Below, one piece after another: positions 817-4,300 of a stretch of DNA of 4,300 nt; position 1 is the stretch's first letter; each line of letters starts with the position of its first letter. The DNA comes from a virus (Duplodnaviria; Heunggongvirae; Uroviricota; Caudoviricetes), in the IMG/VR virus record IMGVR_UViG_2534681662_000009, one strand, 5' to 3'. The translations under genes and the position numbers were made by a program. A model generated the notes under the pieces. That model worked only from the letters and a program-made list of their open reading frames with translations. It made no database searches and was not told where the DNA came from.

Positions 817-1161
817 ATGGCAGTAAAGATTTCAGGTGTACTGAAAGACGGCACAGGAAAACCGGTACAGAACTGCACAATCCAGCTGAAAGCAAAACGT
901 AACAGCACCACGGTGGTGGTGAACACGCTGGCATCTGAAAATCCGGATGAAGCCGGGCGTTACAGCATGGACGTTGAGTACGGTCAGTACAGCGTTATTC
1001 TGTTGGTGGAAGGATTCCCGCCGTCACATGCCGGGACCATCACCGTGTATGAAGATTCCCGACCCGGTACGCTGAATGATTTTCTCGGTGCCATGACGGA
1101 GGATGATGCCCGTCCGAGGCACTGCGCCGTTTTGACTGATGGTGGAAGAGGTGGCGCGTAA
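817..1161 (+). CDS. stf: Stf N-terminal fragment (frame 1); authentic coding to about 1116, then out-of-frame tail to TAA at 1159-1161
   Basis: Track ORF 811..1161 begins at GTG 811, but the homologous start is ATG 817. Residues up to MTEDDARP match lambda Stf; the following [14 protein letters not shown] is frameshift read-through. Confidence 0.75.
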
Positions 1162-1208
1162 CGCGTCCGGGTGGCACAGAACACGGCAGCCGCGAAGAAG
1201 TCAGCCAG

Positions 1209-2170
1209 GATGCCAGCACATCAGCCCGTGAGGCGGCAACCCATGCGACTGATGCTGCAGGCTCAGCACGCGCAGCCAGCACGTCAGCCGGACAGGCCGC
1301 GTCGTCGGCTCAGTCAGCATCTTCCAGCGCAGGAACGGCATCAACAAAGGCCAGTGAAGCATCGAAAAGTGCTGCTGCTGCAGAGTCCTCAAAAAGCGCG
1401 GCAGCTACCAGTGCCGGTGCGGCGAAAACGTCAGAAACGAATGCGGCAGCGTCACAACAATCAGCAGCCACTTCTGCATCCACCGCGACCACGAAAGCGT
1501 CAGAAGCAGCCACTTCAGCACGGGATGCGTCGGCTTCAAAAGAGGCGGCAAAATCATCAGAAACGAACGCAGCATCGAGCGCCAGCAGCGCAGCTTCCTC
1601 GGCAACGGCGGCAGGCAATTCCGCGAAGGCGGCAAAGACGTCTGAGACAAACGCCAGGTCTTCTGAAACGGCAGCGGGACAGAGCGCCTCGGCTGCGGCA
1701 GGCTCAAAAACAGCGGCTGCGTCGTCTGCCAGTGCAGCGTCAACAAGTGCCGGGCAGGCCTCAGCCAGTGCCACCGCCGCCGGAAAATCGGCAGAAAGCG
1801 CCGCATCGTCTGCTTCAACAGCCACAACGAAGGCTGGCGAAGCCACTGAACAGGCCAGCGCAGCAGCGAGGTCTGCTTCCGCAGCGAAGACATCCGAAAC
1901 GAACGCGAAAGCGTCGGAAACCAGCGCAGAATCCTCAAAAACGGCTGCCGCATCGTCCGCCAGTTCGGCGGCGTCATCGGCATCATCTGCGTCTGCTTCA
2001 AAAGATGAGGCGACCAGACAAGCGTCCGCAGCGAAGGGCAGCGCCACGACGGCATCCACGAAGGCGACAGAGGCAGCTGGCAGTGCGACGGCGGCAGCTC
2101 AGAGCAAAAGTACGGCGGAATCCGCGGCAACGCGCGCTGAGACAGCGGCAAAACGGGCAGAGGATATTGC
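1209..2170 (+). repeat. Low-complexity Ala/Ser/Thr-rich coding region (fibre shaft) with degenerate repeats of AAK(T/S)SETNA
   Basis: The protein is dominated by A, S and T. The motif AAKTSETNA / AAKSSETNA recurs at about 1422-1448, 1548-1574, 1632-1658 and 1887-1913. The region is GC-rich with strong codon periodicity. Confidence 0.65.
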
Positions 2171-3974
2171 ATCCGCCGTGGCGCTTGAGGATGCGAGCAC
2201 GACGAAAAAGGGGATAGTACAGCTCAGCAGTGCGACCAATAGCACTTCCGAGTCACTGGCGGCAACGCCAAAAGCCGTTAAGGCCGCGTATGACCTGGCT
2301 AACGGGAAATACACCGCACAGGATGCAACGACAGCACAGAAAGGGATAATCCAGCTAAGCAGCGCGACCAACAGCACGTCTGAAACGCTGGCGGCAACGC
2401 CAAAGGCAGTAAAATCAGCCTATGACAATGCAGAGAAACGTCTGCAGAAAGACCAGAACGGCGCTGATATACCCGATAAGGGACGCTTCCTGAACAACAT
2501 TAACGCGGTCAGTAAAACAGACTTTGCTGATAAGCGTGGTATGCGTTATGTGCGGGTTAACGCTCCTGCAGGTGCAACATCTGGAAAATATTACCCTGTT
2601 GTTGTTATGCGTTCTGCTGGCTCAGTAAGCGAACTGGCATCAAGGGTCATTATCACCACGGCAACGCGAACCGCAGGCGATCCGATGAATAACTGCGAGT
2701 TTAACGGATTTGTTATGCCTGGTGGCTGGACTGACAGGGGGCGTTATGCTTATGGAATGTTCTGGCAATATCAAAACAATGAACGAGCCATCCACTCAAT
2801 AATGATGAGTAATAAGGGCGATGATTTGCGCTCTGTGTTCTATGTTGATGGCGCTGCTTTCCCTGTTTTTGCGTTTATCGAAGATGGCCTGTCAATATCC
2901 GCACCTGGTGCTGATCTCGTTGTTAATGATACGACCTATAAGTTTGGGGCAACAAATCCGGCGACTGAATGTATCGCGGCGGACGTTATCCTTGATTTTA
3001 AGAGTGGGCGTGGTTTTTATGAGTCTCATTCGTTAATCGTTAACGATAACTTGTCGTGCAAAAAACTTTTTGCCACAGACGAAATTGTAGCGCGTGGTGG
3101 TAATCAGATTCGAATGATAGGTGGGGAGTATGGGGCATTATGGCGTAATGATGGCGCTAAAACTTACCTGCTGCTTACCAATCAAGGTGATGTTTATGGT
3201 GGATGGAATACATTAAGACCGTTTGCTATTGATAACGCAACCGGCGAACTGGTTATTGGAACCAAGCTGTCTGCAAGTCTGAACGGTAACGCATTGACAG
3301 CAACAAAGCTGCAAACGCCAAGACGGGTTTCTGGTGTTGAGTTTGATGGTTCCAAAGATATTACTTTAACCGCCGCGCATGTGGCTGCTTTTGCCAGAAG
3401 GGCAACGGATACATATGCCGATGCGGATGGTGGCGTTCCCTGGAATGCCGAATCAGGCGCTTATAATGTCACCCGCTCTGGCGACAGCTATATTCTGGTT
3501 AACTTCTATACCGGAGTCGGAAGTTGCCGGACCTTGCAGATGAAGGCGCATTACAGAAATGGTGGTCTGTTCTACCGTTCTTCAAGAGACGGTTATGGTT
3601 TTGAGGAAGACTGGGCAGAAGTTTATACCTCGAAAAATCTTCCACCAGAAAGCTACCCAGTCGGCGCACCAATCCCGTGGCCATCAGATACCGTTCCGTC
3701 TGGTTATGCCCTGATGCAGGGGCAGACTTTTGACAAATCTGCTTACCCGAAACTTGCAGCCGCTTATCCGTCAGGCGTGATCCCTGATATGCGTGGCTGG
3801 ACGATTAAGGGCAAGCCCGCCAGTGGTCGTGCCGTATTGTCTCAGGAACAGGACGGCATTAAATCGCAACCCACAGCGCCAGCGATCCAGTACGGATTTG
3901 GGACGAAAACCACATCGTCGTTTGATTACGGCACTAAATCCACGAATAACACTGGTGCGCATACCATAGTTTAA
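1209..3974 (+). CDS. stf: Stf central fragment (frame 3): Ala/Ser/Thr-rich shaft, tandem fibre repeats, central module and start of conserved C-terminal region
   Basis: Frame 3 is open 1140..3974 with no ATG/GTG/TTG before GTG at 2178 (track ORF 2178..3974). Homology to Stf resumes in this frame at about 1209 ([13 protein letters not shown]...[14 protein letters not shown]) and runs through ...[11 protein letters not shown] at about 3962. Confidence 0.8.
2208..2426 (+). repeat. Tandem direct duplication (period 132 bp, 44 aa) of a tail-fibre repeat motif inside stf
   Basis: [29 protein letters not shown] (2208-2294) is repeated as [29 protein letters not shown] (2340-2426). The nucleotide copies are diverged at synonymous positions (roughly 80% identity by eye). 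Confidence 0.75.
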
Positions 3975-4132
3975 GTGGCAGCACGAATGCAGCTGGTAAT
4001 CACAGCCATAGAGATGGCCGTCGATTTAACCCCAGTGTTTTTAAAGATACTTATCAATATGGTTATACAAGCTCAGGTCAAAATACCTGGGGTGTACAAG
4101 GCTCAGTAGGTATGTCTACGGGGTGGTTAGCA
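3965..4132 (+). CDS. stf: Stf C-terminal fragment (frame 2)
   Basis: Frame 2 reads [56 protein letters not shown], continuing from GAHT in frame 3 after one apparent base loss in ACC(C)AT at about 3964. Confidence 0.6.
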
Positions 4133-4300
4133 ATACCAGTACAGATGGTAATCATAGCCACTCACTGTCCGGCACAGCAGCATCTGCAGGTGCACACGCG
4201 CATACTGTCGGTATTGGTGCTCATACGCACTCCGTTGCGATTGGTTCACATGGACACACCATCACCGTTAACGCTGCTGGTAATGCGGAAAACACCGTCA
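4129..4300 (+). CDS. stf: Stf C-terminal fragment (frame 1), runs off window end
   Basis: Frame 1 reads [57 protein letters not shown], matching the His-rich lambda Stf C-terminal region; there is no stop before the window end. Confidence 0.7.

Follow-up and report, generated by a model that had tools for sequence, protein, structure and literature searches.

The nine single-base gaps that break up the side tail fibre gene (stf) on a short draft contig of Escherichia coli are very probably consensus errors of the draft assembly, in which two near-identical prophage copies were presumably assembled together. The cluster of frameshifts is almost certainly an assembly artefact and not a real biological feature. 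Its biological weight is low: in the source strain, 2788150, the side tail fibre gene is most probably intact and of the usual lambda type.

The window, that is, the whole stretch of DNA analysed here (4300 nt), is identical to the entire contig AQDT01000026.1 (4300 bp, consisting of the letters A, C, G and T only) of the assembly GCA_000355595.1, which comes from the ETEC strain E. coli 2788150. The isolate is listed as ETEC from Bangladesh and was sequenced with 100-bp HiSeq 2000 reads that were assembled with Celera Assembler, an overlap-layout-consensus program; SPAdes 3.6 was run by the authors as well (Sahl et al., 2017; PMC5469772). All features discussed below lie on the plus strand. 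The contig starts inside the tail-tip gene J, the 3′ end of which (1-85) is called as a gene on the deposited contig, and in the closest genomes the annotated host specificity protein J extends to the same place. Next comes an intact lom gene (153-752), an ORF for a 199-aa outer-membrane beta-barrel protein of the Ail/Lom type (Pfam PF06316; annotated as Lom in relatives), in which alignment with the closest genome revealed no indels. The remainder of the window is occupied by stf, which begins with the ATG at 817 and continues past the contig end (817-4300). The relatives show the same order of J, lom and stf, followed by tfa; the C-terminus of stf and tfa itself fall beyond the end of the contig. 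In the deposited form, stf is split into an N-terminal piece of 114/116 aa (811/817-1161), a 598-aa ORF (2178-3974), stretches that are out of frame and other fragments, and the GenBank proteins EMW42814.1 and EMW42817.1 take their form from the frameshifts. The gene also includes a Phage_fiber_2 repeat of two in-frame 132-nt units (2188-2426, delineated by alignments and domain matches); the number of these units differs among relatives, which is genuine copy-number variation, separate from the artefact.

Base-level alignment of the window with intact relatives reveals nine single-base deletions and no insertions. The alignment set included the stf genes of phages PhiR34_1 and Kati and of E. 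coli PS3T, all of them intact, together with the split stf of PhiR30_1 and the gene of E. coli D10, which is annotated as frameshifted. Relative to the closest genome, PS3T, the window has 42 substitutions and is short of nine single bases, with none added (4300 vs. 4309 nt). Four of the gaps form a 5′ cluster. The first base is missing between 1115 and 1116, where relatives carry T (43), G (11) or A (1) in the third position of the Pro100 codon, and the second at 1134-1136, after 1134-1135, where A (51) or G (4) occupies the third position of the Glu107 codon; both polymorphisms are synonymous. The third gap (1169-1170; C in 53 relatives and T in one) falls on a second codon position and separates Ala from Val at residue 119, and the fourth (1208-1209; C in 54 relatives and T in three) again corresponds to a synonymous third position, in Ser132.

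The 3′ cluster opens between 3868 and 3869, where the missing base is T in 19 relatives and C in 18 (CAT/CAC, His1019), with a shift from frame 3 to frame 2. It continues between 3884 and 3885 (C in 31 relatives, T in six; GCA/GTA, Ala/Val1025), where frame 2 gives way to frame 1, and at 3899-3903, after 3899-3902 within GGG (GGG[G/T]AC in relatives, synonymous in Gly1031), where the third loss of the cluster leads from frame 1 back to frame 3 and makes the triple self-compensating. The eighth missing base (3963-3965, after 3963-3964 within CC; relatives read AC[C/T]CAT, synonymous in Thr1052) shifts frame 3 to frame 2 and exposes the TAA at 3972-3974, and the ninth (4131-4132; GC[G/T]AAT in relatives, with T in 10 and G in nine, synonymous in Ala1108) shifts frame 2 to frame 1. 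The extra base is present in all 37 relatives that span the 3′ junctions (19/19 at the last site). Altogether, the polymorphism is synonymous and in the third codon position at seven sites; the other two sites are second positions, at which Ala and Val alternate.

The original prediction, which was made for the 3′ region, had read it as an stf gene with five 1-nt losses, the first three of which compensate each other. This reading is supported; the cause lay beyond its view. In a three-frame translation of 3780-4300, GIKS, the garbled stretch and TKTT are indeed found in frame 3, THSAS in frame 2 and SSTDLG in frame 1, and both motifs that had been expected at this position, HTHSAS and SSTDLG, appear in the alignments of intact relatives and in the restored translation. 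The garbled stretch, 12 protein letters in frame 3 (3869-3902), replaces HTHSASASSTDLG. Translation together with alignment to intact stf bears out that the first three losses lie within 35 bp, restore the frame and are concealed inside a continuous ORF. The loss placed at about 3964 is one base missing after 3963-3964, and the resulting TAA closes the 598-aa ORF; beyond this point, the His-rich motifs go on in frame 2 and then in frame 1, as proposed. The assertion that every event is a deletion agrees with the alignments to intact stf, which contain zero extra bases. The one amendment concerns the loss at about 4132: a single base is missing after 4131, but it is the G or T of GC[G/T]AAT and not an A of GCAAAT. 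When the five bases are put back, the region reads GIKSHTHSASASSTDLGTKTT and the frame stays open to the contig end.

Restoration of all nine bases yields an uninterrupted lambda-type stf ORF of 1164 codons that includes the same segment. Its product is identical to the Stf of strain PS3T, the closest intact one, at 1155 of 1164 positions (99.2%) and contains PF08400 at full length (1-134 of 134, E = 1.7e-71), two copies of PF03406 (Phage_fiber_2), PF21446 (Gp34_trimer) and PF07484 (Collar); in the deposited sequence, PF08400 is cut at residue 100. The assignment to lambda-type stf follows from the N-terminal PF08400 domain, the place downstream of J and lom, and the collinearity of the repeats, the collar and the His-rich C-terminal region with those of intact Stf.

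The strongest clue to the origin of the gaps comes from the positions at which they occur, a non-random feature other than the one that the original prediction pointed out: all nine missing bases (9/9) fall on columns that are polymorphic by substitution among intact relatives. For this comparison, 52 further loci were retrieved from viral, metagenome and genome collections with a deletion-free 121-mer specific to the window. With the panel projected on the window coordinates, polymorphic columns make up ~11% of the two cluster regions and ~26% of the gene, and simple arithmetic from these fractions gives a chance expectation for 9/9 of ~0.11^9 (~3e-9) locally and ~0.26^9 (~5e-6) gene-wide. 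Over the 4300 columns, the window differs from the 59-locus panel by nine private 1-nt deletions, with zero private substitutions and zero private insertions.

Haplotypes were read by flank-anchored extraction. Real alleles from which the dropped bases are removed become identical to the window in 19 loci over 1085-1235 and in two loci over 3845-4155. In the 5′ cluster, the haplotype TACC, present in 18 loci, is distinguished from the GGTT of D10 solely by the four dropped sites within 151 bp. In the 3′ cluster, the haplotypes TCGCG and CTTTT differ at all five dropped sites, and both depart from the window in one or more other positions; TCGCG is found in seven loci in all, five of these with one other substitution, and CTTTT in three loci (L004, L005 and L047), which also differ from the window at 3917, where the window has G. 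A search of the sampled alleles for a pair that differs solely at the five 3′ sites found none, and in the closest pair each member has one further difference.

Genuine pseudogenisation, that is, nine real single-base deletions accumulated in the stf gene of a decaying prophage, is very improbable in the light of these patterns. Neutral decay gives no reason for the placement of nine out of nine events on SNP columns, nor would it be expected to produce nine deletions accompanied by no insertions and no private substitutions, and three frameshifts that exactly restore the frame within 35 bp would be an odd coincidence. Admittedly, the deletions stand in the GenBank record and have shaped annotated proteins, and frameshifted stf genes do occur in complete genomes: D10 is flagged as 'frameshifted', and the split stf of PhiR30_1 is one base short in the aligned region. 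Real deletions could, in principle, also arise by removal of single bases at mismatches when diverged prophage stf alleles recombine, for example, through aberrant heteroduplex repair that deletes the mismatched base. Each paralogue SNP in the exchanged tract would then leave a scar in the tail-fibre gene, and we consider this process extremely improbable as the source of the gaps.

The same deletions were sought in other records. Comparison of 3700-4300 with 5,426 complete E. coli genomes gave a best match of 99.0% over 606 reference bases, the differences being the five gaps and one mismatch; among 50,697 phage records, none had any of the deletions, and the best matches span five more bases. 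None of the window's deletions is shared by a record of either collection, which is a further argument against pseudogenisation. An exact-string search with the garbled 51-mer returned 0 matches in genome_contigs and viral_contigs, and none of the 52 fetched loci has any of the window gaps. In line with the original prediction, no homologue carrying the garbled stretch in one frame was found in genome_contigs, viral_contigs, the complete E. coli genomes or the phage records. Programmed ribosomal frameshifting or another form of recoding is excluded, given that every homologue spanning the sites reads through in one frame.

Two truncated proteins that cluster with the N-terminal piece (P0017 and P0018) lose the frame at the codon of site 1115. 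Both come from one assembly, GCA_013423045.1. In both of its prophage copies, J has lost single bases at regular intervals, ~24 in every 3 kb, and non-phage genes are fragmented as well. With a single, generally noisy and unrelated assembly as their source, the two proteins are uninformative, and they were rejected as separate evidence that the lesion at site 1115 is real. The loss of frame at this codon in both stf copies of GCA_013423045.1 might instead be taken to favour platform base-calling error, i.e., homopolymer or context deletions of the kind seen with 454, Ion Torrent or nanopore, independent of polymorphism, and at four of the nine sites in the window, one allele would place the missing base in a short run that could have contracted (CCGG, GAA, GGGG and CCC). 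However, the other five lie outside any run, the data are from Illumina HiSeq, a platform on which runs of 2-4 nt do not cause errors of this kind, and the errors of the window are tightly clustered, in contrast to the even ~1 per 130 bp in GCA_013423045.1. A homopolymer model also does not predict the coincidence of 9/9 sites with SNP columns, and an origin of the gaps in base calling has, in our estimate, almost negligible probability.

Two contigs of sibling assemblies from the same project and accession series, AQDH01000065.1 and AQDO01000076.1, likewise encode the truncated N-terminal product of 114 aa; one of them belongs to E. coli 2866550. In these siblings, the bases at 1115, 1134-1135 and 1208 are missing as well, and in place of the base after 1169 the neighbouring 1170 base is gone. 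Three 5′ deletions common to two other isolates might seem to speak for real, inherited lesions, but the lom-stf allele of the siblings reaches only 92% identity with the window, so that the sharing contigs represent a different allele produced by the same pipeline and are not independent assemblies. Compared with ETEC H10407 and TW10828, the siblings show 26-27 single-base losses, which form clusters in K, in J (split there into 325 + 795 aa) and in the 5′ portion of stf. Sibling losses that are universal relative to the panel fall on polymorphic sites in 17 of 20 cases (L058) and seven of nine cases (L059), against a background of 14-16%; the remaining dropouts (3/20 in L058 and 2/9 in L059) are on columns that are monomorphic in the panel. 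One signature occurs in three isolates, in different alleles and in different prophage genes, all typically present in several copies, and this implicates the pipeline rather than mutation. Because the losses in the window fall exclusively on polymorphic columns, and because the siblings, which came out of that pipeline, show such losses again, they are best understood as consensus artefacts, not mutations.

The two alleles that such an artefact involves could come from one genome or from a mixed DNA sample, in which a second E. coli strain (co-cultured or a contaminant) or variation within a phage population would supply the other allele. A mixed sample accounts equally well for the coincidence with SNP columns, and heterogeneous samples have been named as another source of correlated SNPs (Phillippy, Schatz and Pop, 2008; PMC2397507). 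In that case, however, dropouts should occur genome-wide, wherever the strains differ, whereas the spread of the sibling dropouts is uneven, with clusters in the typically multi-copy genes K, J and stf. One pattern in three separate isolates likewise favours a genomic cause, and multi-copy J-lom-stf modules are the norm, which leaves mixed DNA as a very improbable source of the alleles.

Several observations point to co-assembly of prophage copies within the genome. The J-lom-stf module has a median of three matching places per E. coli genome, and the complete genome of ACN002 contains two paralogous J-lom-stf modules with 97% identity over 5.3 kb; three of the dropped sites are among the positions that distinguish them. 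The 4300-bp contig, which starts inside J and ends inside stf, is a typical repeat-bounded contig. Near-identical repeat copies that overlap-based assemblers merge are known to give rise to correlated SNP columns, a signature of mis-assembly (Phillippy, Schatz and Pop, 2008; PMC2397507). The window shows errors at the sites where copies differ, in a short contig that ends inside a multi-copy element, and the errors recur in the same pipeline and are absent from independent assemblies.

Under this scenario of co-assembled copies, strain 2788150 would carry two stf-bearing prophages, and the contig would be a collapsed or partly co-assembled repeat of the J-lom-stf module, with the reads of both copies merged in the conserved N-terminal and 3′ segments. 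Where the reads disagree at a SNP, the multiple alignment would have no winning base and the consensus would emit nothing, leaving a 1-nt deletion. This could come about if the mismatch were divided between two half-gapped columns, each of which is then called as a gap, or, to the same effect, if an ambiguity call were dropped before submission. The deletion clusters would then mark the segments in which the copies are similar enough for co-assembly yet differ at a few sites. Searches of the literature on the consensus behaviour of Celera turned up the general principle of collapsed repeats and no description of base dropping. Stripping of IUPAC letters by the scan pipeline was considered and rejected, as the NCBI contig is identical to the window and made up of A, C, G and T only, and the GenBank proteins carry the frameshifts; stripping of ambiguity letters before submission is possible as a variant of the same artefact.

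The implications concern the databases in the first place. A group of ETEC drafts of the 2013 era that were produced with Celera Assembler appears to contain clusters of false frameshifts in the multi-copy prophage genes K, J and stf, and the errors have spread into GenBank proteins in the form of 114-aa and 598-aa fragments and spurious antisense ORFs. Such products are at risk of being misread as pseudogenes, truncated tail-fibre variants or even novel peptides, such as the garbled 12-letter stretch. The combination of private indels on the SNP columns of relatives with zero private substitutions offers a cheap, reusable test that requires no reads.

With respect to known systems, the window resembles the lambda-type Stf genes (PF08400, StfR-like) of E. 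coli lambdoid prophages, with which it shares the J-lom-stf(-tfa) gene order, the restored domains and the His-rich HxH C-terminal region; the difference is that the deposited stf is broken by nine missing bases. A natural point of reference for the broken form is laboratory lambda PaPa, in which stf is split into orf-401 and orf-314 by a single, experimentally verified frameshift in a defined lineage; the annotation of HK630 reads 'missing C relative to Ur-lambda'. The two cases are alike in that a 1-nt loss splits stf into separate ORFs. However, the lambda PaPa gene was split by one mutation, whereas the window shows nine events, all on SNP columns, within one pipeline and without accompanying substitutions. 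Another counterpart is collapsed-repeat mis-assembly (PMC2397507), which resembles the present case in the short, repeat-bounded contig, the errors at paralogue differences and the recurrence across isolates under one assembler. Classically, such mis-assembly shows itself in the piled-up reads, and the consensus settles on one allele as a rule, whereas in the window it apparently emitted no base at all.

The four single-base losses of the 5′ cluster in stf (window 1115–1208), which the original prediction had listed as a separate finding, have a cause identical to that of the 3′ losses. All four fall on SNP columns, that is, positions polymorphic among intact stf relatives, and the two real haplotypes found there, TACC and GGTT, differ at precisely these four sites. 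Single-nucleotide losses are also present in two sibling Celera assemblies, L058 (AQDH01000065.1, 1–10629) and L059 (AQDO01000076.1), where they are clustered in K (about 1053), J (2771–2960, which cuts this gene into pieces of 325 and 795 aa) and stf (6299–6621), and most of them lie at polymorphic sites. The single-base dropout problem appears to extend across the whole project.

Truncated Stf fragments from GCA_013423045.1, an unrelated E. coli assembly, belong to the same protein cluster as the fragment encoded in the window. In this assembly, J carries 1-nt deletions at a density of approximately one per 130 bp in both prophage copies (QIBM01000036.1 and QIBM01000012.1), and the ABC-transporter genes are fragmented as well; this is an assembly of low accuracy overall. 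Within the 90% cluster of Stf proteins that includes the 598-aa ORF of the window, several GenBank entries are listed either as a “short-chain fatty acid transporter” or as a “phage tail tape measure protein”; these look like tail-fiber proteins whose wrong names have been passed on from record to record.

Gene calling on the deposited contig yields a 249-aa antisense ORF (1310–2059, minus strand) and small ORFs, one of them at 2083–2217 on the plus strand, within the Ala/Ser-rich region of stf. These ORFs are called because the true stf frame is broken, have no Pfam matches, and are probably spurious. Directly 3′ of J (about 104–128) and of lom (about 778–806), a GC-rich hairpin is followed by a T run; as read off the sequence, both look like candidate intrinsic terminators.

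The complete genome of E. coli ACN002 (NZ_CP007491.1) contains two J-lom-stf paralogues, at 4.41 Mb (L065) and 1.53 Mb (L066), with 141 differences over 5.3 kb. The distribution of these differences is mosaic, with none in the region equivalent to window 2241–4101, which is suggestive of a recent exchange between the resident prophages, by recombination or gene conversion. The in-frame Phage_fiber_2 repeat of the window (2188–2426) consists of two 132-nt units with 76% identity to each other, and the intact stf of phage PhiR34_1 is one unit short of the window, which looks like true copy-number variation rather than an artefact.
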